A stretch of 64,000 nucleotides of DNA from Blasia pusilla (Eukaryota), in assembly GCA_050084515.1 (NCBI GenBank), contig CM114271.1, forward strand, positions 43,462,001 to 43,526,000, read 5' to 3'. Position 1 is the first letter of the stretch, and each line of letters starts with the position of its first letter. Shown here piece after piece: positions 6,528-56,191 of the stretch. The notes under the pieces are model-generated. The model did no database searches, was not told the DNA's origin, and saw only the letters and a program-made list of their open reading frames with translations. Position numbers and translations under genes: made by a program.

Positions 6528-6664
<137 letters not shown>

Positions 6665-32599: not shown

Positions 32600-35500
32600 T
32601 TAGCAATTTTCCACAGCACCCACGATGCTCGCGACGTTGCCAGTATGCAGGTACTCCAAGATTACTCCATCATCGTGAATGTCTCGGCCACCTATCGTCT
32701 CCTCACCGGCCTTTGGATCTAAGGACTCTCCATCAGACCTCACCATCGAAGTCTTAGTAATCTGGCTCTCCATAGCCAATAAGCCCAAATAGGCTAATAC
32801 ATCCCATCCTGGCACCAACTCCTCATCACTCTCACCATGCCAATGAGCTCCAATCGCATCTTGCTGACTTGGGCATGGATTACGGCTCAAACCATCCGCA
32901 TCTTGGTTGAGCATCCCAGGTCTATGCACCACTTGGAAGTCATTTTCTTGCAATAAAAGAGCCCACCTTGCAAGCTTCCCTGTAAGCTTTTCGGAGTCCA
33001 TCAACCACTTAAGTGGTTGATGATCAGTAAGGATGGTTAAGGGATTTCCGAATAGATAACATCTGAAATGTTCGACTGTCCACACTGCACCCAAGCACTC
33101 ATCCTCATACAAGCTATACTTCACCTCTGTATTGTTGTTTGAGCAACTAGCATAAGCCACCACAAACTCTCTACCATCATCGTCATCCTGGGTGAGCACG
33201 GCTCCAAGCCCCAACATGCTCCAATCGGTATGCAACTGGAAAGGACGCCCCCAGATCGGTCTCCTCAATAGGGGCGCGAAAGTCAATTTGTCCTTGAGCA
33301 TCTGAAATGCTCTTTCTTGCTCATCCCCCAGTGCCACTCCTGATCCACCTTGGTCATCAAGGTTAGTGGCTTCGCAATCGAACTGAAACCCTTGACGTAC
33401 CGTCGATAGAAGTTTGCCAATCCCATGAATGCACAAACTCGACTCACATCTGTAGGGCGTGGAATACGTGAAATAGCCTCTACCTTCATCTATTGCACAC
33501 CAAGGCCCCTTGGGTATATCATATGACCCAAGTACTCAATCTAGCCATAGAAGAACTTGCACTTGTATGGATGTAGCTTTAGCCCATGTAACTGCAATCG
33601 TCAAAACACCTCCTCTAGATGTCGCTCATGCTCCTCAACCATGGCGCTAAAGACTACGATGTCATCAATGTAACAGCTAGCAAAATCCAGACCTGCCAAG
33701 ATCCTATCCATGACCTTCTTAAACTCAGCCGGGGCGTTCTTTAACCCGAATGGTAAGAACCGCCACTGGTACAAACATTCCTTCCCGAGAGGATCGATGC
33801 CCCAAAATGCCATCTTCTACTTGTCCTCCAATCTGATAGGCAATTGATGGTATCCGGCTCGCAAATCTAATGAACTAAAGACCTTTGCATGCCCAATCAC
33901 ATCAAAGATCTGCTTAGGGATGGGCATGGCATACCTATCTGGCTTTGTCTGCCGATTGATAGGTCAGTAATCTCCACACATCCGCCTATCCGTCTAGTGG
34001 CCATGCACATCCTTCTTGGCGGGCATGACAGTGGCAGATGCATACTCTCCATGCGACATCTTCACTAGTCTTGCTCCAACCAAGTCCTGGCTCTCCATGT
34101 CACTATACTTGTAGGGTTATCGAAAGATTGGCGTGTTACTTGACAACTCAATGCGGATCCTTAAACCCTTCAGCATACCCAAATCATGCATATTAAATGA
34201 AAAATAGCTCCTATAACTCCTAAGGAACTAGTGTATCCGGCGCCGCTCTCCTCTTGTCAACTTAGGGCCCATATCTGGCTCCCAAGTCTCCATCATGACT
34301 ACGGTAGGACTCTCCGACGCGCGTGTTGGTGGTTGCTATGGTGCAACCCCATCTCGGACAATAGAACTCTCATCTCCACGTGCAGTCCTAAGTTGGACGT
34401 GAAAGACTAAGGAAGCCTATTCTGTTTCCTGGCTTCCCCTCGATGTGGATCCAATTCTGCGGCTGCTCCACGCGTCACAACTGCCACGGCCTCCATCTAG
34501 GCAACCCCGCACATCCAACTAGGATCATCCATATCTCTGGCTACTCCATATGATGTCGATGCCACGGATCCGGCATCGGGTAACCTCAATGCCGTAGATG
34601 AAATCTGCTCCTATAGCTGTTGTATTTGAGCAGCCATCCCAGCCTCACGCCCAGCGTCTCTCTCGACGCGTCTAGGTGGTGGGAATTGACCCCCTCCATG
34701 AGCAGCTCCACCACCCTATCGGGCAACTCCAACTCCTCGTCCCCCAACAAGACCATATGGACCGGCTACTCACTTCGATGCCCTCTCTGGCCCTCGGTCC
34801 GGACGTAACTCAGGATGTAAATTGAAACACCTACGCGTGTGTGACCATACCTTTGACAATAGTCACACCAATAACCTCTTGGTGCAGCACCATCTCCTCC
34901 TCCATGTTGAGGCACACATCCATGACCCTGACAAGTGCAATCACGCTGATGATGGGCTCCACCACATGACCAACAAGTAATCGTAGGTGGCTGCTACTAA
35001 GCCGCATACGAAGGCGCAGGTCTCTATGGCATGGCCTCCGGATATCCTCCCTGAGCTCATGGTGCCACAGTCGACCTATCTTGGAGTCCACGTTGTTGCA
35101 CAAGTGGTGTAGACAATCGTGACTACTCTCGCCTAGAACCCATGGTAGCTACGCTCTCCTCTGCCATGTTTCGCTCAATATTCTCGGCGGTCCTAAAAAC
35201 ATCTCTCAACATAGGGGTGGTGTTCATAAGAAGCACCCCTCTTGCACCCGTGTCCGTAGGGTCTGGTCCAACATCGGGTACCATGACTGGATAGCCAGAG
35301 CCTCTGTCACCCCCTGAGAGACATTGATCAACCGGCCAAAGCGAGTGTAAGCCTCATGAAAACTCTCAACTGGGCGCCTCTAGAAGTCGTGGATGCTATG
35401 CAACTTCTCCGTCTGTACCCCTTGATAGCTCGCCCTCAACTCAGCAAAGAACTCAACCACGGGGTTGAACCTCGGACGAATCTGACCAGATGGTGCAACT

Positions 35501-37503
35501 CCGCTAGTGCGAGTGACCCCTCGTAAAACATCACTAGTGGAAGAGGAAGTAGCCTCTCCTGACTCCTCCTCCTCCACTGGGAATGGCTCCGTCCATGACA
35601 CATAGTGTGAGTCATAGTAGAGTCGTCATGCCTCAATCTCTTGGGCATATCTGTGGGGAACTCATGGTAATCGTCCATGTGCGCCCCCTCTAAATGCTGG
35701 AACATACCATTCCATGCTGTAAACGGGTTGAACTCTCTAGAGTTCCTAGCCCGCTGTGAGTCACACCAACTCCTAAACTCCGCAATGAGGTCGTGTAGCT
35801 ATATAGTGCCTACAACAGCCGAAAACCTACGCGGTCCTCTATCCTGGTTGTCCATCTCGTACGCCCAACTGGTAGGACCACTCAATGTGTACGGTGGATC
35901 ACTAACACACTCCTCTGTACGCTCCCCCTCGTTTGAAGATTGACACAGAAGGAGATCATGGAGATTTCTCACATGGAGACCCTTGAAACCTTGCACCACT
36001 CCGGGTAAACCCTCCAGAGCTACTCTCAGGTCCACTACCTCGCCTCTCAAAATCCCGAAAGGATGCCGTGATGGCCCTCGTACCCCTCTCACATGATCAC
36101 TCTCAATCTTGCAAGTAATCCCTCAATCACTCAAACTAAACATGCGGCACTCAATCTACACTCTCTCACTGGGACGTGTGCTGTGCGCGCGGCAACAAGC
36201 AGCATGGTGCAGCAAATCACTGATCTATCATCTCATCGACAAACCATCCTCAACTTTGGACATCCCACACAAGTCTATGTCCCCTAAACCCATACATCAT
36301 CGATGCTCCTAGCATCAGCACGAAACCCAATATCCCAAATAATTTCCCAATATCCAGAAATCCCTCACACGTGCAGGGTAAGAGACCAGAATGGGTAACC
36401 TAACAATAATGTCAATGTCGCTCCTCGGCAAGTGCAAATCTCGACCCCAACTCGGTCGTGACGACAACTCCTCCAATCAGCAAGTCGTACTCCTCTCGTA
36501 CTGCCGCTGCTCAAACCTCCTCGATGTGCGGTGCAGGTCTAGCGGTTCGTTGTGGCACTGGCGGCACTCGACGGCATACCCTCCTCAATCAGCAATTCAC
36601 ACGCTCTGCTCCTTAGTGAAGGAGCGGCTCCGCGATCGAGACGGTACGGTGCGGCCACAAGCGGCACAACGCAGCAATTGGCAGCACATTGCAGCTACGA
36701 GCGTCGCGGCATGGTACTCAATCGTCGTCGAGCGGCTACCAATCACAACATAGCAGCATGAAATGAAAACTCAAACACCATTACTCGAGGTCATCTTCCA
36801 TCACTCGTTGATGACGAAATTACGATGACGGTGGCGGCCAAAATAAAGTACGTGGTGGCAACGCAAGTCAGAGAATCAACGGTCGTCATGGAAGACCCTC
36901 CACTCCGTAATGGCGGCAATAACAACCAAAGGGTGGACAATGGATGAACGCAGCTCTAAGCAGCTCTAGGCAGAGGCGGCGGACGGTGGACGGTGGACCG
37001 TTGACGGTGACGGTTGATCGTTGATGGTGACAACCGACTGTTGATGGTGACGGTTGACCATCAACAGCGGACCATTGACGGTCACTATGATGGCGACGGC
37101 CGCCGCCGGTGTGGCGGTTGGTTTAGGGTTTGAACAATTTAACCATAAAAATCGCCTAGCAATGGCAATTTTGCAAGATTGACCATTACTTTTTGCTCGC
37201 AACTCCAAATTGCGTACTATTTATTGCACAACGTGCATAGCTTCACAATCTAGAACAACGTCAAAAAATATTTGAATCAAATATTCCGATTAAAATTGAC
37301 AGGGACTGTTGTAAAGCCCAACGTCTCTTTCTCCTACACAAAATTTGGCAGCGCTTTCGCGCCGGTTTCTCCGAAAATAAATGTAAAACCTATGAAAATG
37401 AAAATCATCAAGCTACATGGTGCTCCCAAGAGCACTAGCATGGAGCAACCCGCCCCCATACTCAATCCCTATCAAAAATTGGGCAGCGCTTCCGCACGCC
37501 ACT
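32600..37503 (-). mobile_element. Degenerate Ty3/gypsy element 'X' (leader, gag, RT, RNase H; truncated before integrase), same lineage as the element at 37504-46908
   Basis: gag FQHLEG..DDYHEF and YQGVQTEKL; RT YQWRFLPFGLKNAPAEF..CYIDDIVVFS; RNase H FQLHTDWS..TDHQPLKWLM..DADGLSRNP. Protein segments are collinear with those of the element at 37504-46908. Confidence 0.88.
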
Positions 37504-37607
37504 TGTCGTGCGAATCCACATTGTCATACAACAAACATCGCTGACATACCATACTCACATACATACATAACATAGACGAGAGCATACACAAATACAAGTG
37601 TACCACA
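37504..37607 (-). repeat. Terminal repeat B, copy 2 (about 104 bp)
   Basis: tgtcgtgcgaatccaca...gtgtaccaca; direct repeat of 37979-38082. Confidence 0.9.
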
Positions 37608-37609
37608 AT

Positions 37610-37976
37610 TGAAATCCGTGAAAGACTTACTGTCATAAAATACGTATAGAATCACATACAATCGAGCCAAACCCACTCCACGATGGGAGAATCTAGGTCG
37701 AAGCTGCAGGAACCACCATAGCCAAGAGCTCTACTCACTACCAAGGCTAACTCCCAACGCAACAGGCTCAACTCAAAGAACTAACTGTTCTTTGAGTACA
37801 CTCCACACTATACCCTCCAATCTAAGGGCGGGCCCTATTGGGAAAGTCACCCTCAACAAAGTAACCCCCAACCCTATATATGAAACCGCATCCCTACCTA
37901 GACACTACGGCCCTACATAAGGTATGGCCTCTACTAGCACACTAAAATCTACGACATAATCCGTATGGTCATGACA
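37610..37976 (-). repeat. Terminal repeat A, copy 2 (about 367 bp; TGTCAT...ATGACA core 37631-37976)
   Basis: Direct repeat of 46542-46908, roughly 90% identical by eye. Confidence 0.9.
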
Positions 37977-37978
37977 AC

Positions 37979-38082
37979 TGTCGTGTGAATCCACATCGTC
38001 ATACAACATACATCGCTGACATACCATACTCACATATATGCATAACATAGACGAGAGCATACACAAACACAAGTGTACCACA
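37979..38082 (-). repeat. Terminal repeat B, copy 1, directly after the PPT
   Basis: Direct repeat of 37504-37607; on the minus strand it begins TGTGG one base after the purine tract. Confidence 0.9.
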
Positions 38083-38257
38083 ACTCGCCCCCCTAACTGG
38101 CGGTTAGGTCCCTCTAACTCCGAGGTAACCCTATACATCTACTACATGCTATACACCTTCGTGGGCACACGAATAAGAAGGCCGGGTGCGAGGTTGCCCC
38201 ATCATTAGTCGCACATCTGTAATTCATATCATGCAAAGATCAAGTCATCTACCCCTC

Positions 38258-38482
38258 CTAAGTACATCGAGGACAAATCCACCTTCCAGTAGGAACAACA
38301 TCCATACATGGAGTCAAACACATCATGTGCCAACCCCTAGAACACCGATCACACACCAACATACGGGCTGCATTACCAGCAGACCCACACAACATGCATC
38401 TCAAGCTACCACGTATCATGGCTAAGCTTGGATCAACAGTACCATCCACATTTGGAAGATGACATGGCGCACAATTACGCAC
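38258..38482 (-). pseudogene. PHD finger at the C-terminus of the element Y integrase
   Basis: CMLC...MLVCDRCSRGWHMMCLTP...VPTGRWICPRC is a complete C4HC3 PHD pattern. It is in frame with the integrase tail ORF 38492-39079, separated by one stop. Confidence 0.92.
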
Positions 38483-38491
38483 ATGGTCCTT

Positions 38492-39533
38492 CTAAAAAAC
38501 TCCGTCACGACCCTCCAACATGAGAACTCCAGAAGCTAACACCTCGCGCACTCGTAAAAAAGTGCGGCCTACCGTCACATCCAACGTTGTCGGTGCAATC
38601 TGCTGCAAAAAGACATAGTCCCCCACATGGAACCTACGAATCGATGGTCGATAACCTCCACCTCGAATGGTTGCATACCGCAACGTATCCCTGTGTTGAG
38701 CAATGGCAAGATTCTCAAAGGTTGTTGGCATAACTCTCCGAAAGAGCTCTGCCCGCTGAGAACACACTCTCATCCACATCTCGGGGTCATCACGGTTCAC
38801 CACCTCACTAGACTCCCGACGAATTGATGCTGGAAAATTTGGATCTCGGCTGTATAACAGAAAACTAGGTGAGAAGGAAGCCAAGGATGCTTGGCGACTG
38901 GACCTATACCCCATAGCTAACCATGGCAACTGAATATCCCAGTCTCCAAGATGCCCCTTCTGTAGGCCATACTTGCGCAATGCCCTCTTCACCGTCTGAA
39001 CCACACGCTCAGCCAAACCATCCGCCTCTAGATGATCTCGAGATGTGGTCCGATGATCAATCAACGCCTTGTCACACAAGACCTGAAACTCACCCCAAAC
39101 TCAGACCTAGTCGGTCGGTCAAGACTCTCAACTTTCGTGCACCAAAATGACTAAGCACTCTATCAAAAAATGCATATGCCGTTCCCTCACTTGCCTTGTC
39201 AGGTAATGCCACCAACTCAATCCACTTGGAGAAGTGCTCCACCATCACCAACACATATCAATGATGTCGTACAGTCAACGATAACAATCCCGCAAAATCC
39301 ACACTCCAACGGTAACCCAACCCCATAATAGGCAAGGGGTGTAACTATGGTGTAGGGGCATTGAATGATGCCCTCACCAGGTCACAAACCATACAACGTG
39401 ACACCAACTGATGCGCCTGAGTATGCATGCCACGCCACCAATATTGGCCAAGAAGTAAGCTATATGTACGCCTTACCCCAAAATGTCCCAACTCCTCATG
39501 GGCATGTCGTACAATGCGCTCTCTCTGAGCCAA
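38492..39533 (-). pseudogene. DDE integrase of element Y
   Basis: HEELGHFG...CMVC zinc motif, RWSVDFAG, VEHFSKWIELVAL, DGLAERVVQTVKRAL; disrupted by stops and frameshifts. Confidence 0.88.
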
Positions 39534-39592
39534 TGCGGCACCACTCGTACTCTACCATCCTCCCACACATGGAGAATATGTGTTCCCTCTAA

Positions 39593-40910
39593 TCAATACC
39601 TCCTAGCACGTTGAAGAACATGGTCTCGCTCCTTGGCACTCACTATGCCTAACACCCTAGTGGTCCGTAGGAACTCCAACACCAACGCAGCATCATGAAT
39701 ACCACGCTGATCCATACCACCATCTCCAAACTTAGGATCTGAAGGCTGGCCATCTACCCACTGACTAGAGTAAGATGTCATGTGGTTCTCCATACTAGAG
39801 TCCACCCTTAACCAACATAAAAATGCACATGCATGCCAACCTGGCACCATCTCCTCATCAACCTCGCAATGCCATCTAGCCCCAGTTGCATCCTCTTGGC
39901 TAATACATGGGTTCCTACTCAACCCATCAACATCAAGGTTGGAAACTCTAGGTCTTTGTACCACCTCGAAGTCATACTCCTGTAAGATAAGAGCCCACCG
40001 TGCAAGCTTCCTTGTAAGCTTGTTAGACTCCATCAACCACTTGAGCGACTGGTGATTAATAAATCCCTTCACATACCTCTGATAGTAGTTCGCCAATCCC
40101 ATGAATGCCCGAACTCTATTCATATCTACCGGACAAGGAATAACTGCAATAGCCTCCACCTTTGCTTGCTGAACTCCCAAACCACCTGGATAGATCACAT
40201 GACCCAAGTCCTCAACATCCTCATGGAAGAACTTACACTTTCCTAGATGCAAACATAGACCATGAGCTTTCAAACGCTCAAACACTAGGATCCTTTCCAT
40301 CACTCTCTGAAACTCGACAGGTGCATTCTTCAACCCAAAGGGTAAGAATTTCCACTGGTACAAACAATCCTTGCCATGAGAGTTGACACCCCAAAATGTT
40401 GTCTTGGCCTTGTCACTCTCTCGAATCGGCAACTGATGGTATCCTGCCCGAAGATCCAAAGTACTAAAAATCTTTGCATGTCCCACCACATCAAAGATCT
40501 CCTCAGGTGTAAGCATGACATACCTATCGGCCTTGGTTTGCCAATTGATAGGACGGTAATCTCCACACTTCCGCCTATCCGTGTAGTTGCCAAGCACATC
40601 CTTTTTAGCAGGCATGACAATGGCTGATGTATACTCTCCACGCAACAATCAGGTCCCTACTGTCAATCAGGTCCCTTTCCATATCACTATATCGGTAGGG
40701 ACGACGGAAGATTGGCGTATCACTAGCCAAATTAATCCGTATACCGGATCCAACCAAAGCACCCAACTCCTTCTTGCTAAAGGCAAAACAACTCTTATAA
40801 GCACGTAGGAACTGTGTCAAGCGTCGTTTCTCACCTCTCGTAAGCTTGGGCCCAGGTAATGGCTCCCAAGTATGCTCCACTGGCACACTAGAGGGAGAGG
40901 ACGACGCCAT
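39593..40910 (-). pseudogene. Reverse transcriptase/RNase H of element Y, with internal deletions
   Basis: RKCGDYRPIN, FSTLDLRAGYHQL, LPFGLKNAP. The YxDD segment and the N-terminal half of RNase H are absent relative to element X. Confidence 0.9.
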
Positions 40911-41139
40911 TGGCTGCTATGCAACCCCCTCACAAGATGGTACACCCTTAGCTACACCATCATCTGAGCGGATAACTCCTCCATCAAAATGAGCAACCAA
41001 CTCCACATGCCCAGCAAAAAATACTACTCTCCTTGCCCCAGCCGATGCCTCTACTGTCCCGGTAGCCATTAAGCTCATCACAAGGGGTGGAAGATCCACA
41101 CACATAGTCCGAAGCCGACGTTGCTTGGCAATACCAAGA

Positions 41140-42085
41140 CTCAAAATCCAGGTCCAACAATTCAGGTCCATGGCCTGACCCAACACATGAAGTCGTGAAG
41201 CCTCAGAAATGGAAGCAACCGCTGTCACACTAGTAGCAAATCCCATCGCACGCTCTCTCTCATCAGCGTTAGGCTCCACCAACTGTCGCACATGAGAATC
41301 CCATACAAGCCCTAGACCACCTTCCCTGTAGGCATGTGACGAGGGAAAACTCACAAATGTGGGTAGTGCCATCCTAGGCTGCCCCACACGGTTCACCACT
41401 GCCATGGGTGACCGATCAATAACCCTCACCACCTGAGAAAGTCGCCCAATTCCAAGTTACTATCCACTGTAAGGCAAGGATCCCGCTGCACTGCATCATA
41501 TGCTCAACGTAGAACCTCCCTAGGCAACAAGTTTGTCCACCACAAGCGTGAACGATGTGCACGCGAGCCAACTCGCACTGAATCCAACAACACCGCTTGT
41601 CCAATCCAAGACCGCACCTCATAAACACTCGTCATCATCCGGGTCCGAGTGTCACCCAACAATGGAACATTCTCCAGAATGTAAGCTGGAGCACGTGCTT
41701 GATGAACGTGAAGATGTCGTAACACACACAACATCTCCCAAAACAATCGAGACCTAGGGTTGTGTAATCTCTCACCACGACCAGCACATGTATGACCCTG
41801 ACATGGCCATCCAGCAATCACCAAATCCACAGGACCAACCCTCTCAAGCTCCTGCCCTCCCAACAATGCAATGTGTGACGACAAAGCACGTTGGTACTCA
41901 CAAATAGCTGATGGCGGCAACAACTCAGGATATCTCCATATCAACTGACCAATATGTGGGGATGAGACTCTCTGGGCCGTCTCATCTTGCTCCACATACA
42001 CGTATCTCTGCACAAGAATACAGGCCTGCAACACTGCAGCCAAACCAATGCTAATCCCACCAAAGAGATCTAACACACAAATGCC
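41140..42085 (-). pseudogene. C5-cytosine DNA methyltransferase domain embedded in the retrotransposon pol
   Basis: Motifs in canonical order: I VLDLFGGI, II VEQD, IV DLVIAGWPCQG (catalytic Cys codon 41801-41803), V RSRLFWE, VI ILENV, VIII AHRSRLWWTNL, IX ERERAMGF, X RLHVLGQAM. One stop (41504-41506) and one frameshift near 41450. Confidence 0.92.
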
Positions 42086-45000
42086 CTCCGGCGGATACTG
42101 CCATACAATGGGTGTAGTATCCAAAGGGGATAACCCAACTAGACGAGAAGTAGGAGTCCGCCGTGGAGCCTCCTCTTCCTCGTGAGGTATAACAGCCTCA
42201 CACCAAGCCTCCTGCTGTAGTGCACCGCCTGAACTCCAAAGTGGCAAATCCAACGATGAGAATACCATTGCTGCAAAACTAGGAACCTCCTCTACCTCCT
42301 CATGCACAGGAGAATCCATAGCAGAAAGGTTACCCTCCAAAAAGTCTCATGGCCAAGTGACTACTCCACTAAAACTAGCCACAGATGCTAACACTGTTGG
42401 GGAAGACTCTCCGGGTCGAGCCCCATAAATAAATCTTACAAGAACGTGGCATATACGTCCATCCCCGGACTACCAACCAGGTCTATAAGAGGATGTCTGA
42501 GTCCAGTAGTCCATCTGAAAACCCATCAGGTATAATACTGCTCCTCCAACTAGTACATCATACAACTCGGCTGATGTGACCACTGCAGGTACTCCCAACT
42601 TGGAGCTATCAGTCACATGATCTGGTCTGAAGTGTATAGAAAACTTCTCCCGTGTTATGAAATGAGACCTATCATTGGCTCCTCCAAGTGATGTCTGAAT
42701 CAAGAATGGGCAAGGCTCAAGCTCTGACCTCCGAACATGCCAATACATGCCGCCTTTCCCAACATCAAAGGTTGGGCACCATCGTCTAACAAGACTCTAT
42801 CTGGTCTATACACCTATCGTGTAGGACCCACCAATAAGAATATCCCATTCCGGTTGTCCATAATACATACACCAGGTGTAAGCCTCTTACGATCAATGGT
42901 TGGCCGGGTTGGTAATGCATCCATCTTCGCCGTTGCTGCCTCCCAAGTAGCACTGGTACTCAATGCTACACCTGACATAGAGGGTTGCTCCACCGCAACA
43001 CCCTCATCCACCTTAGCACGTGTAGTAGTAACACTCCCACATTCACACAACATGGCTGCTAGCTGAAATACAGGAGCTAAGTCAACTCCTAAGGCCATCA
43101 ACTCAGTGGTTGAAAACAATGGGGATCCCAACATTGAAGTTGCCATCCGCAATATTGCACTGGATGCTGCATCTGTGTCTACTACATGTGATGTAAATGC
43201 CTCAGTCCCCACTGTAGGCTCAATAGGCTGCGTCGGAACCATGGATGGAGTCCTAAGCACCTCAGACAACAAGAATGACTAGGGGAGCCTAGCCTGCCTC
43301 CAAGCCTCACCCCTCTGTGGGTCCAACTCCACAATAGAACCACGTGGCTCTCACGCTCGAGTGGCTCCTCTCGTAATTACAGCTGATGCCTCAACCTGTG
43401 TTGTACTCGCCATATAAGAGAGATCATCCCCTCCATAATAGGTGGAAGCCCCTGCTCCCGAACGTGCTCTATGCTGGATACCAACCGTAGTAGCCAACCC
43501 AACTGCTCAATCTTGGCAGCCATAGCTAACTCTGTCGTAGTGGTAGGGGCAGCCATCGTAGGCTCTCCAACCGCTGGTCCACCTCTACCACCCCTACCAC
43601 TTCAACCAACTCGGCCTCTCGGAGCTACTCTACCATGGCCACGGCTTGATCTCAACTTTGGATGAAGATCAAAACAACGCTCTCGAGGATGACCTGGTCT
43701 CCCACAATGATCACACTGAGTTGGGACTGACTAAGGTCCATCCTCCAAAGTCCGTCTCCCATCCTCTTGGGAACAAAACCTCATGACATGATCACCTCCA
43801 CATGTCCAACATGACTGTCCTTGCTGTGGGGCAGCAAATGAAGGCAATGGTCTATGTGCAAGTGTCCTTTTAGCACCTAACTGAGGTCGTGTGTACCCCC
43901 CACGACTCCCACTACTACTACCACCACCACTACTACTACGAGATTTTGAGATGGATTGTTGAACAGGAGAAGTAGAAGCTGTATCCCTAATGAATGTTGA
44001 TGTCACCACCCTCTCCTCCACCATGTTAAGCTCAATCTTCTCAGATAGAGCAAACACATGGGCCAATGTGGGTGAATCATCACTCATAAGAGTAGCATCA
44101 TGTACCCTACGGCGCAACTCTCTTTCCAAGATCCCATACCTTTCTGCCTGAGCCTCAGTCACACCCTAGGTAACTGAAATCAAGCGTCGCATACGAGTGT
44201 ATGCCTCACTAAGACTCTCACCAATCTTTTGCTCAAATTCCTGAAAACTCCTTAACTTCTTTGTCTTCACTCCCTAATAGTTCGTCTTCAACCTCTTGAA
44301 ACACTGTGCAACTGGGCTGAACGATGGTGGGGCACTAGTACTTCCACTAGTACCCCCATTGGTACCTCCATGGGTACCCCCACTGGTACCCCCTCTCCGG
44401 CTCGTACTCGCATAACTCAACGTGGGGCTGGCTGACACAATAAGAGCACTACTACCAATACCACCATGGGTGATAGATACATAGCCTGGAGACCAATATT
44501 ATCTCCACGCCTCAATCTCAGTAACATGGTCCCTCCTAAACTCATGGTAATCATCCATGGGTGGTCCCTCCAAGTGCTAAAACAACCCCTTCCAAGCCAA
44601 GAAGGGGGTAAACAACGTGGCGTTCCGCAACATTTGCATATCACACCATGTATCAAACTCCTGAATAAAGTCCTCCAACTCAATGGTGCCCACTGCACCC
44701 GAGTATTGTTGTGGGCTCTTCATGGCCCCATACATCCTGTCCATGTCCCAAATCAATGGAGCTGCAACACTCGATAACAATGTAAAAGACTTGGTGTTTG
44801 GAACACCCTCGTCCTCCTCTTCATCAACCGTCGGAAGTGAAAAAAGGTAGCCGATACCTCAATCCACTCCGTGTAAAACCACTAGTGTCTGCACCACGGT
44901 CCCCAACCAAACCACTAGACATCTCTGTGATGACCAACGCCGATGCCGCACCACCACCAAATCACCATCACTAAGTAACCAAGTGACGTCCATGTCGTTG

Positions 45001-46541
45001 TACTATTCTAGCTCTACTAGCTATGGGTGTGGGCAACCTAACCTGTCATCGCCACAAGAAGCCTCCCACGGTCTATTGGTCATCACTCCAGTCTCACCGT
45101 GAGAGAAACAAATGTAGTATGACTGGTCATCCCTCCAGCCTACCTACCGGTAGCACACAAGAGTAAAACTACTCTGGAAATCACCGTCAGCCCTAAGAAT
45201 GGGCGCGCAAGCAAGAAGCAACGATGGAGGGGACCCAAATACAGGAAGTCCAACGACAACCCTCCAATCGCAAATGGAAGTATAAAATGGAAATCAAGGT
45301 AACACAATCCACCAAACGTGGCACCCCTTGAATCCACAGAACCAACCACACAATTCTAACGCAATAGTTACTCCGTCGGGGGTTGATGACGTGCTAGTCG
45401 CACTCACTGCATCTGAAAATGTCACCTGCATGGAGAGGCCACACCATACTATGCGCTAGAGGTCCATCAACCAAAACCTGAGATGCATAAAAGCGGCTAA
45501 CGCATCTCCAAATAACACCAAATGAGCTACACCAGTGTGTACACTGGCATAGTTACGTATTGAGCAGTTAAGCGTCTTCCAGGAAGAATAGCCCAAAGAT
45601 GGGTGACCACTTATGCAACACTCAACTCACAAATCTTGCAAAAACTACCTCACGCCCAAGAAAGCAAGCTTGCTTGCTTGCTCCTTGCTCCTTACTCCCC
45701 CTCTCACGACCACAAGTTGCCTCGAAGCCTCAAATCCTCGAAGGCTCAAAACGCCGAGAAATGCTCGAGACATGCCCCTATCGCCTCGTTCGCCATGCTT
45801 TGCTATGGAGAGAGATCCAACCAGGGCGCCCCCAGCAGGATAGGCGTCTCCAAAAATGGATGAGTCACCAACCAACCAGCCCCTCTGATCTGTTGTCCAC
45901 CATAGCCTGTCCTTGAGCTAGTCTGCAAAATTTCGACCAGCAATTACTCCAAAAATCCTCAACCAAAAATGAATCTATTTCAACCAGAATTCAATTGGCC
46001 ACCATAGCTACCTCTCCACAAAAATTCAGCTACAACTGAGCTCTATACTCCGAGCTAGAAATCAGCAAACTTGCAGTCCATACACCTCCAGAATCGCAAA
46101 TCCGACAGCGCTTCCGCCTAGATTCATGCACACAGAAATCTGCAACACTCTTTCACCACAGCAACAATCCACTCCACACACTCAAGCAGATATCTTCACA
46201 TGAGATCAAAATAGAGGTAGCAATAGGAACCTCTCACCCAATCTGGATGAACTTCAACAGAGCTTCCGCACTCCAAGCTCTCCACATCATAAAACTGTCG
46301 AACACGAACCAGAATCTTCAATCTTGATAACTTCCAGCTCCCTTGACAAAATCCCGCGATCTAAAGTGCGTTGGAAAGCTCTCAGCAAGGCGCTTCTTTC
46401 CCAAAAAACCACACACCAGATCCACACCTCCAACATAGGCCATAAGCCACAAACATCCACGGCTGAGTACACAATCAACACTAACCAGATCCTACTGATC
46501 TACGATCAAAGCTACCATCAATCTACTCCAGTTATTTGAGT

Positions 46542-46908
46542 GAAATATGTGAAATACCTACTGTCATAAAACACGAATAGAATCACATACAATCGAGCCA
46601 AACCCACTCCACGATGGGAGAATCCAGGTCGAAGCTTGCGGGAACCACCATAGCCAAGAACTCTACTCACTACCAAGGCTAACTCCCAACGCAACAAGCT
46701 CAACTCAAAGAGCTAAATGTTTTTTGAGTACACTCCACACTATACCCTCCAATCTAATGGCGGGCCCTACTAGAAAAGTCACCCTCAACGGAGTAACCCC
46801 CAACCTTATGTATGAAACTGCATCCCTACCTAGACATTACGGCCTTACATAAGGTATGGCCTCTACTAGCACACTATACTCTACGACATAATCCTTATGG
46901 TCATGACA
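46542..46908 (-). repeat. Terminal repeat A, copy 1 (5' end of element Y)
   Basis: Direct repeat of 37610-37976; the minus strand begins TGTCATGACC. Confidence 0.9.
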
Positions 46909-47150
46909 CACTCTTCCACACAAAAAATCGCCAAAAGAAACATCACAAGTAAGCGGCTCTTGCTCCGGTGAGCACTCCCATGAACGGCTAAACGGGGAAT
47001 ACGATCCCCAACCTGCAAAACCAACGAGTGACTAGTGAGCTCCCCCATGAAGCTCTCTCACTAACTCATTCTCTCTTTGTAAAATAAGATCCAATCTCTC
47101 TCACAACACCATAGTTCTCACATGTGTGCATTCTCACATGTCTCTCTCAA

Positions 47151-47559
47151 TGTCAAACCAAACCCACTCTCCTAATGAGAGGCTTGGGTTACACACACAA
47201 GGCAAGTAAGACCATAGCTCCACCGCCTCATGCCAAGAGGTTCAACAAAGAGAGAATGAGTTCTCAAGCTTTCTCTCCTTGAGGTATACCCCTCTCGTCT
47301 CCCAAACTCTCTCCATGGTAACCTATGCTCCCAAGTCACCTCCTTGGCTCTTGACCTGATGAAGGAGGTCAAGGGCTATTGACCAAAAATAGAAAGTCGA
47401 TAATATACTTAAAATGGTACTTACCGAAAATAGTAAGTTACTCAATATGGCTCCAAATGAGCCGAAACGAAGGTCATCTTTGACCTGCTGAGTCTGTCCT
47501 CCACTACTCACAAAGAAAGTCTACTAGATTCTCACCAATCTATCCTAAAAGACGTGACA
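47151..47559 (-). repeat. LTR-like repeat (family 'c'), TGTCA...TGACA
   Basis: 5-bp terminal inverted repeat; similar to 5060-5402 and 55576-56191; no TSD seen. Confidence 0.65.
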
Positions 47560-47882
47560 ACACAGTTAGGATATATTGGGTTAGATTAGTATTCTGCATT
47601 CAAGAAGCTCATCGTTATCGTGCTTGAGAAAGGAAAGATCAAGGAGAAATGCAACCTAGTTACTCGATGATGCAAAACCGTCCAAGTTCATGGAAGGGGG
47701 GAGGGGGGCGTGGAGTTTTCCATTTTTTGTTAGGAAATATTCAAGAACCATATGCATGCTAGTCCACAAGGAAATATACATACGGTGTGAGAATCCGTTT
47801 ATCATAGTATAAGAATAAAGTTTAGTGTATACTTGCCTTGTCTTCTCTAACCCCATGTTTTTTTTTGCATCTCGGCCGATAG

Positions 47883-48887
47883 TGTCGCGCCCCTAATCTC
47901 CTTGAACGTCAATCTTTAGTGTTGCGGAAGCGTACGTTCAATAGGACACGAACTCATCGCCGATCTGCACCCAAACACGCACTCTCGTTAGTCGGGTCTG
48001 GGCCAACCTGCGTTCCAACCCACCGAGTTCTCAACTCGGCGTCTCATCAAACTCAACCTTCCTTAATTCCTAGTTTCCAAAATATGGCAAGTCCTTCAAG
48101 ACTTGGAACAGACTTCCTAATTAGTCCAGGAATCTGAAACGGCCTTTGCACGCCTAGCGATCCCAACTGTTCAACGGACCTCGTGTGAGTTACAAACCGA
48201 GACCCAAGTAATTGAGTCGCGGGGTGAAATCCAAGAGGGATGTCTAAAATCGCCTCAATAGACTTGGTGCAGGTTTTCCAACCCAACTCCCAAACTCGCG
48301 TTCCGTTCCATGCCCTTGAGCCGCCCCGTGGTGCCCAAAGTGGGGTTTGAGTTCCAAACACTTTTGGAGATCTTCCCCCTTACTAGTACTTCTGGGGTTC
48401 TCCAATAACCCCCTGGCCCCTTGGAAAAGAAGGGTCGGGCCCTTCATTGTGGCCCTCAACCCGACTCTACTTACAGTCATTTCCGGGTTGTTTCTCAGCC
48501 GCTGCTAAAGCGTTTGCAAAGATCTTTAGTGCGTTTGAAGTGGCTTTCCATAAGCTTTCTAACGCACCCTTATTTAATCCAAACACATCTTGGAGCTAAA
48601 AGTTATGGCCATAAATACAGTCGGAAACTCTCAAACGCTAGTGGCGTTCCAAATCCGGATTCTTCCTTTGGCAACCCACTTCCTAGACTCCACTTCTTTC
48701 AAGTCTCATTCCGCGTTTGGTCCAAGTTTCTCGGTCGCGACCACAACATCTGAAACACGACGCCTCGCTCGCGTCTCGTCTCTTGTCTCCTCTTTGAGAC
48801 TACTCCAATGCGCAAACCATCTTAGCGTGAGCCCGCTAATGTTCCGATGTTCCGCTTGGCACTCGTTTGGTCATGAGGGTCGCGACA
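47883..48887 (-). repeat. Chromovirus 3' LTR (1005 bp)
   Basis: TG...CA ends with a 7-bp inverted repeat; PPT AAAGAGGGGTGAG (minus strand) at 48888-48900. Confidence 0.95.
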
Positions 48888-51800
48888 CTCACCCCTCTTT
48901 AGAGGTTGATGCCCTTATCAATGCAAACCTTGTTATGTCAAGTCTCCTAGACAGCCTACCCCTTGACATTGATTTGCGTTCTGGTGGCTAACCCGCAATT
49001 CCTCTTAGTCTATAGTTGTCGCTTTGCCCCACTTAGAATTATTAGCCTCTCCTCTTTGATAATCTTGGACAGGTTCCAAAAAACTAACCTATCAAATAAG
49101 CTAACTAAGTGTGCAACCATAGACTCTTCTGGCTCACTCTTGTAAACATCACACTTGTTTACTAGGTCCACAAATCGTACTACTATTGGGTCGCTCTCGT
49201 ATTCGACTTAGGCGCGTCACTAAGTTTACTTATGTGGCCACAAGTAAGATCACCCCAAGCCCCAAGACAGACATCATCTGCCCCGCCGACGCTAGGGCGA
49301 GCCCGAGTGTAATCCAACACAAGGTCCTGTTCTAGGTGCTTATCCACATACGAGCTCTCGCCTCAAATACTCCTTGTCTGTCCTCTTGACTTACATTCTA
49401 AGCCTATGATGAACGACTCATAGCCATGCACTACCACATACAAATTGCAATCAACTCTGGCATCGAATCTCCAAATCCATACACTCCTTTATTGCAACAC
49501 TAGCTTATTCTAGTTACAACGGCCTTCGGCCCAAGATTCCATTGGTTACAAGTCATGTCTCTAGCTTCTCCTTGTACTAACGCATGTGCTTCGCTTGTGT
49601 TCGCTTGAAGTCTCGCAACAACTCTTGCGCCTGTTCCAAATCTGCCTCCGCAATCCAAGTCGCCTCCTTCACATGGTAGCCCTTCCATTTTACCTTCATA
49701 CTTGTTGGCCTGACGCCTCGAACGTAAGATGGTCTCCACCTCAAACTCCGGCTCTTCATTTATGATCACCGGGTGCGGTCTCACCACCTGTCTCCGCTCG
49801 AAACGTCCATTATCTTGAAGGTATTTCTTCAACAATGACACATGAAAGGTCGGGTGAATCTTGAACTCGTCCGGCAGCCTCAACGTATACACATCCTCAA
49901 ACGGGTTTGCCACAATCACATACGGTCCAAAGATACTTGGCGGGCCGGTTTTCGCAGACAACTCTTTCGGAAGAGTGAGGTTCTTTACACTCAACCACAC
50001 TTGCTCTCCAGCTTGGAATCGTACTTGGCGCCGACTCTTGTTAGCATGCTTAACGTACCTCATTTGAGCCTTTGCAAGACTTCGCCTTGCTCGCTCTTCC
50101 CGTTCTCGCATCTCTACCAACAAACCTTCTGCCGTCGCTTGTCGTGTTCGTGCCAATGTAATACCCTTCGGAAGGGCTAGGTCAAGAGGCCCTTCTGGCT
50201 CTCGTCCATTTGCCAGGAGAAACGGAGATTCTCCAGTTGCAGAATGCTTGGTCGAGTTGTAGCAGTACTCCGCCATGCTCAGCCACTTGACCCAATCTCG
50301 TTGATCAGCACTAACATAATTACTTAAGTACTGATTCACGATAGAGTTCACCTTTTCAGTCTGTCCATCCGTCTGTGGGTGGAAAGCCGTACTGAAACTC
50401 AGCTTGGTCTTAAACCTTCTGAACAAGTGCTTCCAAAAAGCACTGGTAAACTTTGGATCCCGATCTGAAACAATGCTCCTCGGCAAACCGTGAGCACGCC
50501 ACCAACTATCGCGAAACAGTTGCGACGTTGTATAAGCCGTTGCGGAATCCACCATCGGCACGAATCTCGCCAACTTGCTAAACCGATCAACAATCACAAG
50601 TATAGCGTTGTATCCCTCAGATTCCGGAAGACTCGTGATGAAATTCATACTCACACTTTGCAAGGGTCCTTCTGGGATCGGCAAGGGATGCAGCAAGCCC
50701 TGATTCTTATCATAAGAGACTCTATTCGCTTGGCAGGTCACACAGGTCTTCACATACTGAGCAACATCCCCTTTCATGTTGGGCCAAAAGAACCGCTTCG
50801 ACAGAACAGCTAGCGTAGATTTCTCTCCTTTATGTCCTGCCAAGGGTCCGTCGTAACATTCCGCTAACACTTTGGTTTGCATCTTGCCTTGCCCTACATA
50901 GATCCTACTCTGTTTGAACCTTAGTAAACCGTGCCTCAAACTTATGTTGGCCACCTTCTCACCCTGCTTCAACTTCCTCAGGTACTCCCCTGCGTGAGCA
51001 TCCTTCATATATCCTTCACGAATCCTTCTTTCCAGGTCTGTCTCTTTAGGGAACATTGCTCTCAAGACCTGTGTCGTCGATGGCATGTGTTCCTCCTTGC
51101 GACTCAACGCATCTGGAATCACATTATGTTTACCTAGCTTGTGAATCAACTCAACATCCATCAACGCCAAGGTATCATGCCATCGCAGTTGCTTCGGTGT
51201 CACTCGATCCTGGGTCTCAAAATACTTGAGTGATATATTATCGGTGAATACTCAAGTCCTGTGGAGCCCTAAATAATGCCGCCACTTCCTCAATCAATGT
51301 ACCACTGCGAACAACTCTTTCTCATGAGTAGGCCATCTCCTTTCAGTATCGCTAAGCTTCTTGCTCTCGTATACCACCGGTCTCCCTTCTTGCACCAACA
51401 TTCCTGCAACCGCGAAATCACTAGCATCGGTACGCACTTCGAACGGTTTGTCAAACTCCGGCAACTTCAATACAAGTTCATGCGATAGAATCTGCTTCAC
51501 TCGGTTGAATGCCTCATTAACTTCCTGGGTCCAAGTTGTGTTGGCAAACTTTGCTGTCCAATCCGTGAGAAGTCTCACAATTCCCGAAAAGTTTTTCACA
51601 TAAGTGCGATAGAACTGCACCGCACCTATAAACCTCCTCATCTCCTTTACAGTGGATGGGGGTTCCCGCTCGAAAATCGCTTTCACCTTCTCCATGTCTG
51701 GACTGACGCCATCTGCACTGACCACGTGACCCAAGAATTTGATCTTGCTCAAGCCAAATTCGCTCTTCTCTACATTCGCATACAACTGATTTGCCCTTAG

Positions 51801-54075
51801 CTTAGACAAGACCGCTCTCACATGTCGAACGTGCTCCTCTAGTGACTTTGAATAGATAAGTATGTCGTCAATAAAGATGATAACATACTCATCCATTTCC
51901 TTGTGAAAAATAGAGTTCATCAGTGTGGTGAACGTTGGAGGCGCGTTACATAGACCGAAAGGCATCACTACAAACTCAAAGGTCGGCAATTCGAATCTGG
52001 TAATATCCTGACTTCAAGTCGATCCTATTGAAATATCTCGCGCCTGCCAGCCTATCAAAGAGATCATCTATCCTCGGAAGAGAATAATTGTTCCGAACCG
52101 TCACTTTATTCAGCGCATGGTAGTCAACACACAGCCCCATCTTTCCATCCTTCTTCTTTACAAAAAGAACAGGTGCTCCATAAGGTGACTTGCTAGTCCT
52201 AATGTAACCCTTTTCCAAGAGCTCACTTAACTACTTTTTCAACTCAAGAAGTTCCTCCTGATTCAACCTATATGGTGCTTTTGAAGGCGGTTGGGAACCG
52301 GGTATGATCTCTATCTTATGATCAACGGCTCTATGTGGCGGAAATTCAGTCGGAAGCTCGTTTGTCAAGACATCCTCAAACTCCTTGACCACTTCCTGGA
52401 GTGGTTCTAGGATTCCCCTTGAAGCAGTGTCCTGATCTCTGCGTATACTGCTTGTAGCCTCCTCCACTTGTCTCATCAAGCAGAGAAATCCATCCTCCAA
52501 CTTGGTCATGCTCCTCCTTGTAATCGGGTTCACTAACTCCTTTTTCGCCTGAACCTCACGGACCAACCGCACCTGTAACCGTTTGCCTTTTAGCAAGACG
52601 CTCAACCTCAAGGATCTACGTCTTAACTCCACCTCATACGCATCTAGGAATGTATTCCCCAAGACTCCGTCAATGCCATCCATTTCGCACACAGTGAAAT
52701 TCTCCTTCAACTCGAATACCCCTCATCCTACTGTCAAACCCAAGACCAAATCAGAAGTCCAATGAGACTTGCCTCCTGCAAATCCTACTCGAATGGGCTC
52801 ATCCGTCTTAGAGGTAGACAGCCCCAGTTCCTTCACGATTCTCGGGCTTAGGAAGGAGTGCGAAGCACCTGTATCCACGAGCAACAACACATCGCGATCA
52901 GCAATCTTGGATCTTAGGTACACCAAATTGTGCGTCCTCTTGGTGACCTGAAGGGACGTCTCGAGATCGCCCGCCAACAGATGGTTAGCAGCAAACGCAA
53001 TCATACTCCCATTACTAACCTTCGGTTTTGAACACACTTTCGCCAGGTGCCCCGGTTCGCCACAGTTGTAGCATACGACCTTGCCATTCCCTGACTTTGA
53101 GTGCTGTCCTCCTTTCGGCTTCACATGAAGTTCCACTTGTTTTGCTGCCGGGGCAGACGACTCCCCTGGATCGTGCTGGCCCGCACTCCAGACTCTTTTG
53201 AACGCCTCCTTATTTTTCCACTTCTTCGAGAAACTTTTGGCTCGAAGGGTTTCTGGGTTTGGACCTCATCGTCCCCAATCCGCTCCGCTAGCTTCAGAAG
53301 ATCCGCGCAGGTCTCTGGCAACGTCGGCATTTGGTAAAGGGCCTTTTCAGCGCTCGGCTTGAGTCCACTAATGAAGACAACCTTCTTCGCGTTCTCATCC
53401 ATCTTTGGAATAGAAGTCAGTTTCGCACTAAACTCCCTCACATACGTGCTTAAGGAACCACTCTGCCGCATCTGCACGCATTCCACCGTGTCGCGCAACC
53501 CTTGGTACTCCGGAGTGAATCGATCCCCAATCAAAACCTTGAACTCCTCCCAACTCAAAGGTGACTCGCCGCCCAGATATTCCTCTCGTTGAGTTGTCCA
53601 CCATTGTAGCGCATGATCCTTCAAGAAAGTAACGGCTACCGTTACCTTGTCCTACTTAGCTGCCCTCTACGCCTCGAAGTACAGTTCCAGTTCCGTAAGG
53701 AAATCCTTCACTTTCCGCGAGTGCCCCACCCCAGTGAATGGCGTGGGCAGGTTCGTCTTGAAGAGCTTTCTGCCCGCACCCGGAGTTCAAGTGGCCTCTA
53801 ACTCTGCAATCCGCTTGCTTTGCTGGGACATCTGCTCCACCAACAGCTTCAACAAGTCCAACGTCTGGCTTGACTCGATCCGTTCCCCTGAGTTTGGGCC
53901 TGATGGCCCCGCTGAAGGATTCACCTCTAGGACGTCCTCACGACTGGCGCTCAGCTCTTCGGAAGTCTTCGTCTCCTCCATAGCTTCACGGTCCGGCATT
54001 GGTTCCTCTCTTGGTTCACGTCGCTTGATTCGGCGCTTCTTGGGTGGTTCTCCCTCGACCGCCATCTCCTCCTGG

Positions 54076-54942
54076 CCGAGTTCTCAACTCGGCGTCTCAT
54101 CAAGCTCAACCTTCCTTAATTCCTAGTTTCCAAAACATGGCAAGTCCTTCAAGACTTGGAACAGACTTCCTAATTAGTCCAGGAATCTGAAACGGCCTTT
54201 GCGCGCCTAGCGATCCCAACTGTTCAACGGACCTCGTGTGAGTTCCAAACCGAGACCCAAGTAATTGAGTCGCGGGGTGAAATCCAAGAGGGATGTCTAA
54301 AATCGCCTCAATAGACTTGGTGCAGGTTTTCCAACCCAACTCCCAAACTCGCGTTCCGTTCCATGCCCTTGAGCCGCCCCGTGGCGCCCAAAGTGGGGTT
54401 CGAGTTCCAAACACTCTTGGAGACCTTCCCCCTTACTAGTACTTCTGGGGTTCTCCAATAACCCCCCCCCCCCCCTTGGAAAAGGAGGGTCGGGCCCTTC
54501 ATTGTGGCCCTCAACCCGACTCTACTTACAATTGTTTCCGGGTTGTTTCTCAGCCGCTGCTAAAGCGTTTGCAAAGATCTTTAGTGCGTTTGAACTGGAT
54601 TTCCATAAGCTTTCTAACGCACCCTTATTTAATCCAAACACATCTTGGCGCTAAAAGTTATGGCCATAAATACAGTCGGAAACTCTCAAACGCTAGTGGC
54701 GTTCCAAATCCGGATTCTTCCTTTGGCAACCCACTTCTTAGACTCCACTTCTTTCAAGTCTCATTCCGCGTTTGGTCCAAGTTTCTCGGTCGCGACCACA
54801 ACATCTGAAACACGACGCCTCGCTCGCGTCTCGTCTCTTGTCTCCTCTTTGAGACTACTCCAATGCGCAAACCATCTTAGCGTGAGCCCGCTAATGTTCC
54901 GATGTTCCACTTGGCACTTGTTTGGTCATGAGGGTCGCGACA
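54076..54942 (-). repeat. Chromovirus 5' LTR, missing the inner 140 bp
   Basis: Matches 48023-48887 with about 20 substitutions and one small indel by eye; no counterpart of 47883-48022 and no PBS. Confidence 0.93.
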
Positions 54943-55575: not shown

Positions 55576-56191
55576 TGTTACATCTTTTAGGATAGATCGA
55601 CAAGTTTTGATTGAGCGCCTTTGAGGATATTGGAAGATAGCCTCAAGAGTTCGAGGATGACCTCTTGAGGCTTTTTGTAATATGAGAGAGCAGCTTTTCC
55701 ATTCATTTTGGCTCATTTGGAATTATATAGAGAAATTTACTATTTTGTGTAAGTTTTTACTAAGAGTATAGTTGACCTTCCACTTTGGGAAGTGATCCTT
55801 GACCATCTATAATAGGTCAAGAGCAAAGGAGATGACATGCAAGCATAGGTTACCATAGAGAGAGAGTTTGTGAGGGAAGGAGATATACCTAAGAGAGAGC
55901 TTTAGAGCTCATTCACTCTTTGTTGAACCTCTTGGCATGAAGCGGAGGAGCTATGATCCTCCTTGCCTGATGAGTAATCCAAGCCTCTCATTAAGAGAAT
56001 GGGTTTGGTAACTTATGCTTGCAATAGGTTACCATAGAGAGAGAGTTTGTGAGGGAAGGGGATATACCTAAGAGAGAGCTTTAGAGCTCATTCACTCTTT
56101 GTTGAACCTCTTGGCATGAAGCGGAGGAGCTATGATCCTCCTTGCCTGATGAGTAATCCAAGCCTCTCATTAAAAGAATGGGTTTGGTAAC
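55576..56191 (+). repeat. LTR-like repeat (family 'c') with an internal 179-bp-period tandem duplication
   Basis: Starts TGTTACATCTTTTAGGATAG, resembling the reverse complement of the 47559 end; 55845-56012 is repeated at 56024-56191. Confidence 0.75.

Follow-up and report, generated by a model that had tools for sequence, protein, structure and literature searches.

How does a retrotransposon that encodes a DDE integrase come to be bounded by split direct repeats? In the textbook classes, the arrangement of long terminal repeat (LTR), internal region and LTR is tied to DDE integrases, and split repeats are tied to tyrosine recombinases. The question is raised by an element on the minus strand of a 64,000-nucleotide stretch of Blasia pusilla DNA (contig CM114271.1, positions 43,462,001 to 43,526,000), hereafter referred to as the window and numbered from its first letter. 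The element, at 37504-46908, is of the Ty3/gypsy type and has two unlike repeats, A and B, in the order A-internal-B-A-B. We find that this order is the normal integrated form of a whole family, bounded by TG...CA and by a 4-base-pair (bp) duplication of the target, as is characteristic of a DDE integrase. The family thus breaks the textbook link consistently, and it does so in a highly abundant plant repeat: in one of the contig placements (run X1), 226,820 contigs were placed on the window.

Only two repeat pairs emerged when 36500-48000 was searched for repeats and the four repeat segments were compared with the entire window by blastn. The longer repeats, A1 (46908-46541) and A2 (37976-37610), are 92.4% identical over 368 columns (E ~1e-154), and the shorter ones, B1 (38083-37979) and B2 (37608-37504), are 94.3% identical over 105 nucleotides (nt; E 4e-41). 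Even with permissive blastn settings (word size 7, E<=1), A and B had no additional match in the 64 kb. Along the minus strand, one meets in turn AGTG, A1, the internal region, the polypurine tract, B1, GT, A2, A, B2 and AGTG; the unit starts with TG, ends with CA and is flanked by the 4-bp duplication AGTG (CACT on the plus strand), and no TGG-type primer site directly follows A1. A preliminary description of the locus had reported this order, the CA-GT-TG joint, the outer TG...CA, the CACT flank and the lack of a TGG-type site, all of which were borne out by the self-comparison, the blastn search and the sequence itself. Its coordinates needed only small adjustments, as A1 runs one base further to 46541 and each B starts one T earlier (38083 and 37608). 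Since both copies of B share this extra leading T, the A2/B2 joint can be read either as CA-A-TTG or as CA-AT-TG. The terminal features are as follows.

46909..46912, minus strand: upstream copy of the target-site duplication, AGTG, matching 37500-37503.
46541..46908, minus strand: repeat A1, beginning TGTCATGACC and ending ATTTCA, aligned with 17 A1 copies from the related loci introduced below.
Within A1, minus strand: hairpin arms CTCAAAAAAC (46728-46719) and GCTCTTTGAG (46713-46704), plus a decayed TATA-like site.
46531..46540, minus strand: candidate self-priming primer-binding site CTCAAATAAC, directly after A1.
44859..46530, minus strand: long untranslated leader of ~1.7 kb, without a Pfam family in its open reading frames (ORFs) of >=60 amino acids (aa).
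38084..38094, minus strand: polypurine tract AGGGGGGCGAG, adjoining B1 (read from the sequence).
37979..38083, minus strand: repeat B1, TTGTGGTAC...CACACGACA, ending CACGACA (repeat search and blastn).
37977..37978, minus strand: GT spacer in the palindromic joint CACGACA-GT-TGTCATG (read from the sequence).
37610..37976, minus strand: repeat A2, with the intact hairpin CTCAAAGAAC (37796-37787) / GTTCTTTGAG (37781-37772) (repeat search and blastn).
37609..37609, minus strand: one A separating A2 from B2 (read from the sequence).
37504..37608, minus strand: repeat B2, ending CGCACGACA.
37500..37503, minus strand: downstream copy of the target-site duplication, AGTG (read from the sequence).

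Relatives of the element were reached through a methyltransferase that is encoded in its pol gene. The methyltransferase ORF was searched against proteins of 491-2000 aa, giving 42 matches, and an alignment of 23 methyltransferase-matching proteins served to retrieve 80 related loci from metagenomes. The nearest of these is only 83% identical to the window over 1592 columns, indicating that the loci come from related genomes and not from that of the window. The 42 longest loci were compared with themselves, and A and B from four copies of the element were searched by blastn against all 80; homologous A or B was present in 34 loci, and 46 were without a match. Pairs that represent the same insertion were merged by their identical flanks (L027=L047, L050=L052, L009=L010, L036=L037 and L023=L029), and L023 proved to be rearranged.

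Among the independent insertions, B-NN-A(-N-B) was observed at six 3' ends (the window, L027, L034, L046, L052 and L008, the last being counted although its contig stops inside A2), and a single B followed by unique flank was observed at ten (L051, L037, L030, L032, L033, L065, L070, L024, L020 and L053). At the independent 5' ends, comprising 15 loci and the window, B was found in front of A in 0 of 16 and directly after A1 in 0 of 16. The two equal terminal LTRs of an LTR-type element are therefore absent, the integrated form being A-internal-B-A-B with no 5' end that reads B-A. Perfect 4-bp target duplications at the start of A and the end of B mark six of the seven complete independent copies: AGTG in the window, CATA in L027/L047, TCTC in L034, AAGG in L052, TACA in the single-B copy L051 and CACA in L023. 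Taken alone, the flank of the window element has a 1 in 256 probability of matching, and the preliminary description had allowed that CACT might be a chance match; as six of seven copies carry perfect duplications of their own, chance is not the explanation. Ordinary BA...BA pairs, chance nesting and misassembly, which had likewise been considered there, are contradicted by the recurrence of the unit, with duplications of its own, at independent loci and by the 16 5' ends, none of which has B in front of A. A tree built from the 3' 1.5 kb together with B intermingles the single-B and the B-A-B copies (at least 4 changes, shuffle mean 5.4), which shows that the single-B form is not a separate lineage.

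Two other sources were screened for the layout. A pattern scan for the B/A joint gave no match in viral contigs and one in genome contigs, a Microbacterium record (L081) that was taken as chance. Contigs that skip ~476-483 nt of the window (from 37573-37580 to 38052-38057) were rejected as evidence on the layout and are taken as alignment ambiguity between B1 and B2, their short sides being 22-27 nt long and lying in the GT-rich part of B.

The coding content of the element was examined by ORF translation and Pfam searches. Every long frame is on the minus strand and is disrupted by stops and frameshifts, and the element is a decayed copy, with ~7% divergence between its repeats, of a bryophyte-type Gypsy-DNMT3 LTR retrotransposon family. 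Its coding regions are the following.

43731..44858, minus strand: gag remnant with a CCHC knuckle CWTCGGDHVMRFC, stops and frameshifts; tblastn similarity to the gag of a neighbouring related element, no Pfam match.
42470..43278, minus strand: protease-like region, which aligns with relatives whose consensus has LLDSGAQ; no Pfam match in the window copy.
40917..42346, minus strand: Dnmt3-type C5 cytosine methyltransferase domain in pol, with FGGI, PCQ and ENV motifs (PF00145, E 9e-7).
39593..40916, minus strand: internally deleted region for reverse transcriptase and RNase H (RVT_1, E 8e-14, and RT_RNaseH, E 9e-5, in 39593-40648).
38492..39551, minus strand: integrase, with an H2C2 zinc domain at 39345-39551 (Integrase_H2C2, E 4e-16) and a decayed DDE core at 38492-39100.
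38258..38491, minus strand: C-terminal PHD finger and pol stop codon (PF00628, E 6e-10).

The pol order of protease, reverse transcriptase, RNase H and integrase is that of Ty3/gypsy, with the methyltransferase inserted between protease and reverse transcriptase. Asp_protease_2 lies upstream of the methyltransferase in the relatives L062 and L059. The methyltransferase frame of the window copy is interrupted between 41456 and 41504; the Pfam match to C-5 DNA methylase falls in the ORF at 41504-42346, and all 29 of the 29 solved-structure matches of the methyltransferase ORF are to DNMT3A, 3B or 3C. The integrase core is too decayed for Pfam in the window, and rve was detected at the same place in L027, L034 and L051, where it accompanies Integrase_H2C2 and PHD. 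A tyrosine recombinase (Phage_integrase, PF00589) was found neither in 36 window ORFs nor in the scanned ORFs of the relatives, and 21 of these window ORFs, including all those of >=60 aa in the 1.7-kb leader, gave no Pfam family. The domain matches confirm the preliminary description of an integrase-bearing gypsy type; that account was silent on two domains (Dnmt3 and PHD), on the candidate site for self-priming, on copies with a single B and on the related layout already published for KnitGypsy-Dnmt3.

The methyltransferase is 62-66% identical to proteins of Marchantia polymorpha and also matches Calypogeia fissa and Sphagnum; no Klebsormidium sequence was among the 42 matches, which cover proteins of 491-2000 aa only. 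More distant metagenome proteins from the same search combine reverse transcriptase, RNase H, DNMT, integrase and PHD. According to Pfam, the distant relatives L059 and L062 encode protease-DNMT and then reverse transcriptase, RNase H, integrase and PHD, as in the window element, and L074, L075, L077 and L078 have the order reverse transcriptase, RNase H, DNMT, integrase, PHD. The methyltransferase occupies two sites in Pol among the relatives, after RNase H or between protease and reverse transcriptase, which suggests domain shuffling or more than one capture. No terminal repeats were found on the contigs of the distant Gypsy-DNMT relatives (L042, L057, L059, L062, L063, L066 and L074-L080), and these loci are therefore silent on the age of the layout. 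One of them, L077, carries a 3.5-kb stretch (1-3498) that is repeated at 6557-10057 with 99.9% identity and a period of 6556 nt. The repeat spans the end of gag to reverse transcriptase/RNase H and gives a truncated pol, a gag and a full pol (reverse transcriptase, RNase H, DNMT, integrase, PHD), which could be a nested or tandem arrangement.

The sequences at the borders of A and B indicate where reverse transcription and integration would act. In 18 of 19 family rows, B is immediately preceded by a polypurine tract, GGGGGG(C/T)GAG, and 45 contigs of another organism lose homology at 38085 (run X2). As the tract adjoins B, plus-strand DNA should start at B. Repeat A contains TATAAAG, and GTTCTTTGAG, which begins 32 nt past the T of this box, is preceded by its own inverted copy CTCAAAGAAC. 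In most of 18 aligned copies the box stands at this distance and the consensus CTCAAAGAAC also occurs right after A1, where it is complementary to GTTCTTTGAG inside A. In an RNA starting at GTTCTTTGAG, the first 11 nt are predicted to pair with the site after A1 (z = -2.2 for the whole 187 nt). Judging from the sequence, GTTCTTTGAG is the likely transcript start, and the 10-11-nt complement after A1 is a candidate Tf1-like self-primer site.

A starts with TGTCATG and B ends with its inverse, CACGACA, and the two are joined at B1/A2 as a palindrome with a 2-bp spacer. The spacer is GT in the window and GC, GC, AT, AT, TC and GC in six locus rows. At the A2/B2 joint, the window, L046 and L052 have one A, L027/L047 has one G, and L034 carries a 21-nt insert whose final bases, CCGAG, are like those of the polypurine tract. 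Over its last ~30 nt, B is similar to A at positions -36 to -7 (1 of 500 shuffles was as good), and A itself reads TGTCATGA...TCATGACA and then TTTTCA in the region that resembles the end of B. The idea that B is an internally deleted A was rejected, as the likeness is limited to these last ~30 nt of B and the starts are unlike (85 of 500 shuffles as good).

Based on these features, we propose as the most likely reading, with moderate confidence, that reverse transcription makes B-A LTRs and that the integrase cuts an internal palindrome after the ends of the complementary DNA (cDNA) have been joined, giving a permuted provirus. The priming sites would define the LTR as B-NN-A, with the tract adjoining B and the primer-like site adjoining A, and an RNA running from the middle of A1 to the end of A2 would be reverse-transcribed into a linear cDNA of the form B-A-internal-B-A. 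The integrase would ignore the outer ends of this cDNA. Its attachment (att) sites would be the inverted 7-mers TGTCATG at the start of A and CACGACA at the end of B, which would adjoin within the LTR to form a ready palindrome spaced by 2 bp, and staggered nicks at the two CA's of the palindrome, 2 bp apart, would create ends like 3'-processed retroviral ends. Such a reaction is known in principle, as foamy-virus and HIV-1 integrases can cleave the palindromic LTR-LTR junction (PMC1180852, PMC1905944). The right end of the cDNA (A) would first be joined to its left end (B), by a two-LTR circle or by an end-to-end template jump, and a cut at one palindrome of the end-joined cDNA would then yield A-internal-B-A-B. 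End-joining of A and B before integration would explain why this joint varies between insertions, once with tract-like bases. Only A-internal-B-A-B keeps the 3' copy of R, and hence only this form can seed another cycle. For the single-B copies (A-internal-B), the present data are equally compatible with three possible routes: cutting of both palindromes, a circle with one LTR, or a subsequent B x B deletion. Of the two options in the preliminary description, one was a non-canonical replication route and the other the integration of a two-LTR circle opened at its internal site. The two merge here: a one-off accident is excluded, and the layout is a regular product of the family, shaped like a B-A circle cut at B/A, the circle itself being a supposition.

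A broader proposal, which we put forward more tentatively, is that a lineage with a DDE integrase moved its U5 beyond the polypurine tract. Each LTR would then hold a ready-made circle junction (end of U5, NN, start of U3), which would be cut in end-joined or circular cDNA rather than at linear ends. If this is true, split direct repeats follow from the location of the recombination site and not from the use of a tyrosine recombinase, and an element with an integrase would have as its obligatory intermediate the circular cDNA that is usually seen as a dead end.

Several observations weigh against end-joining and palindrome cutting. The transcript start, the poly(A) site, the primer and the circle are all predictions from sequence; the start of the folded segment was chosen by hand, so the terminal pairing is partly built in and amounts to a fit, and all copies are decayed, so covariation says little. 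The NN spacer is more variable than expected of a simply inherited sequence, the complete copy L037 has no target duplication (ATCA vs AACC), and contigs assembled from metagenomes may be chimeric where a repeat family is concerned. If a two-LTR circle were cut symmetrically, A-B-A-internal-B should arise equally often, whereas this form was seen at 0 of 16 5' ends compared with six 3' ends of the B-A type; the missing mirror product calls for faster A x A deletion or a directional step. Finally, there are more single-B copies (10) than B-A-B copies (6), and the former would not be able to replicate.

This last imbalance speaks for excision from linear cDNA. Acting like a cut-and-paste transposase, the integrase would cut the internal att site in both LTRs of B-A-internal-B-A and insert A-internal-B as the main route; A-internal-B-A-B would represent rarer joined-end products, and only these would sustain the family. 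Most independent 3' ends (10 of 16) have a single B, the complete single-B copy L051 has the perfect duplication TACA, and the two forms are interspersed on the 3' tree. However, A-internal-B lacks the 3' R, so that most insertions would be dead on arrival in a very abundant family, and B1 x B2 deletion after insertion explains the same copies equally well; we regard this route as unlikely. We assign a similarly low probability to a replication like that of DIRS or PAT without ligation, in which template switching on the B1-A2 joint would rebuild a closed or terminally redundant cDNA and the DDE integrase would perform the last step only. The B1/A2 joint has exactly the sequence of the joined outer ends, and the layout is identical to the 'A-coding region-B-A-B' that the legend of Fig. 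1e in PMC5890265 calls typical of DIRS. Yet the A2/B2 joint is inconstant (A, G or the 21-nt tract-like insert), which fits untemplated joining better than copying, and a canonical polypurine tract and primer site lie at the boundaries formed by the start of B and the end of A.

A tyrosine-recombinase element of the DIRS type, or mobilization in trans by one, is highly improbable. DIRS-type elements are not known to make target-site duplications, whereas 4-bp duplications are present in six of seven complete copies; rve, H2C2 and PHD are encoded and Phage_integrase is not among the ORFs scanned, leaving the repeat layout as the sole point in favour. An accident of the window copy, whether nesting, misassembly or unequal recombination among tandem elements, is refuted. 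Directly 3' of the element there is indeed a related gypsy remnant without DNMT (gag 35888-34934, reverse transcriptase 34320-32606), and its 5' end would fall near A2/B2. However, A-internal-B-A-B with its own duplication is found at independent loci from other assemblies, and the window holds no other copy of A or B. Moreover, both flanks contain parts of one ~135-nt repeated motif (GCG[G/A]AAGCGCTGCC.AATTTT...; 37321-37360, 37456-37495 and 46913-46935), so that the insertion sits inside a short tandem-like repeat, as expected of simple insertion. The idea that A2-B2 is the 5' LTR of the remnant was also rejected, since independent loci repeat the unit with their own duplications and the remnant is only ~73% identical.

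The layout also has consequences for annotation. Programs designed to find LTRs as an equal pair at the two ends will overlook such elements and their single-B derivatives or set their borders wrongly, and Dnmt3 genes inside the missed elements can be mistaken for host genes.

Further repeats were observed in the neighbourhood of the element. The remnant at 32606-35888 (minus strand) is a truncated relative of the window element, with 54-62% aa identity in reverse transcriptase/RNase H and ~73% DNA identity. Its gag and reverse transcriptase are only ~600 nt apart, and it is therefore without the methyltransferase domain; it also lacks the integrase and the 3' end. On the other side, a gypsy-like element at 47883-54942 (minus strand) has 867-nt repeats (54942-54076 and 48887-48023) that are 97.3% identical but are not equivalent ends. 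A polypurine tract adjoins the 3' copy, which is followed by a unique 140-nt tail ending in GGGGCGCGACA, the inverse of the first 9 nt of the element, and CTATC after this tail matches the 5' flank. The ORF starts directly after the 5' copy, and the repeat ends in the hairpin CCGAGTT-GAG-AACTCGG. These termini reflect either a 5' deletion or a second type of non-canonical terminus (A-internal-A-B), and the element was rejected as a clean canonical control, being itself asymmetric. The region at 47166-47500 (also 5139-5248) had by far the highest summed contig depth in all four runs (415,210 in X1 vs 6,900-140,000 in the other bins, including the element) and is a separate, very high-copy repeat. 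At 55845-56198, two tandem copies of a 175-nt unit are 97% identical, and a 39-nt match links them to the sequence immediately upstream of the window element.

Compared with known systems, the element shares with DIRS, PAT and Ngaro the split repeats A1-internal-B1-A2-B2 and an internal B/A joint that equals the joined outer ends. TOC1 of Chlamydomonas is grouped with these split-repeat tyrosine-recombinase retroelements. The window element differs from them in its DDE integrase, 4-bp duplications, TG...CA ends and polypurine tract, and in a methyltransferase that is of the Dnmt3 type rather than Dam-like; with the recombinase absent and the duplications present, it does not belong to DIRS/PAT/Ngaro. 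With canonical Ty3/gypsy elements it shares the gene order, the polypurine tract, the TG...CA ends and the 4-bp duplications, target duplications of 4 or 5 bp being typical of plant lineages (PMC6317226). It departs from them only in the register of the repeats: the element is not LTR-internal-LTR, and the LTR defined by priming (B-A) is out of register with the ends defined by integration. Chromoviruses have a chromodomain where the window element has a PHD finger.

The window family may resemble the self-priming elements Tf1, Sushi and Tcn1, as its 5' repeat is directly followed by the complement of a site in A where the transcript is predicted to start. Tf1 primes with the first 11 nt of its transcript. 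Among plant LTR elements, self-priming has been predicted for 12% (PMC6317226). The two-LTR circles of foamy virus and HIV-1 offer a parallel for the proposed restriction-like cut by a DDE integrase at a CA...TG palindrome of adjoining att sites, with the difference that in those viruses the palindrome exists only at the circle junction, whereas every LTR of the window family contains one, spaced by 2 bp.

In the full-text literature search, no integrase-bearing element with split direct repeats was apparent from the titles and abstract openings of the matches listed, and for bryophyte Gypsy-DNMT3 elements the search turned up only later citations of de Mendoza et al. (2018) on DNMT3 in streptophyte retrotransposons. 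The comparison with described integrase-bearing split-repeat elements, which the preliminary description had envisaged, nevertheless leads to that study: the legend of its Fig. 4c states that the repeats of KnitGypsy-Dnmt3 from Klebsormidium nitens are 'the same as that of a DIRS retrotransposon' (PMC5890265). The main text of the study contains no bryophyte element, target duplications, att sites, primer sites or mechanism. The present analysis turns a one-line legend remark into a bench-testable model with 4-bp duplications, an internal att palindrome, a variable A/B joint and a candidate self-primer site. As far as that text goes, KnitGypsy-Dnmt3 and the window element are alike in a Gypsy-type Pol with a Dnmt3-type methyltransferase and in a DIRS-like repeat layout; the host differs, the best named protein matches of the window element being to liverworts and mosses. 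Accordingly, we regard the window element as a further, bryophyte-type member of a little-studied kind that is already in print for KnitGypsy-Dnmt3.

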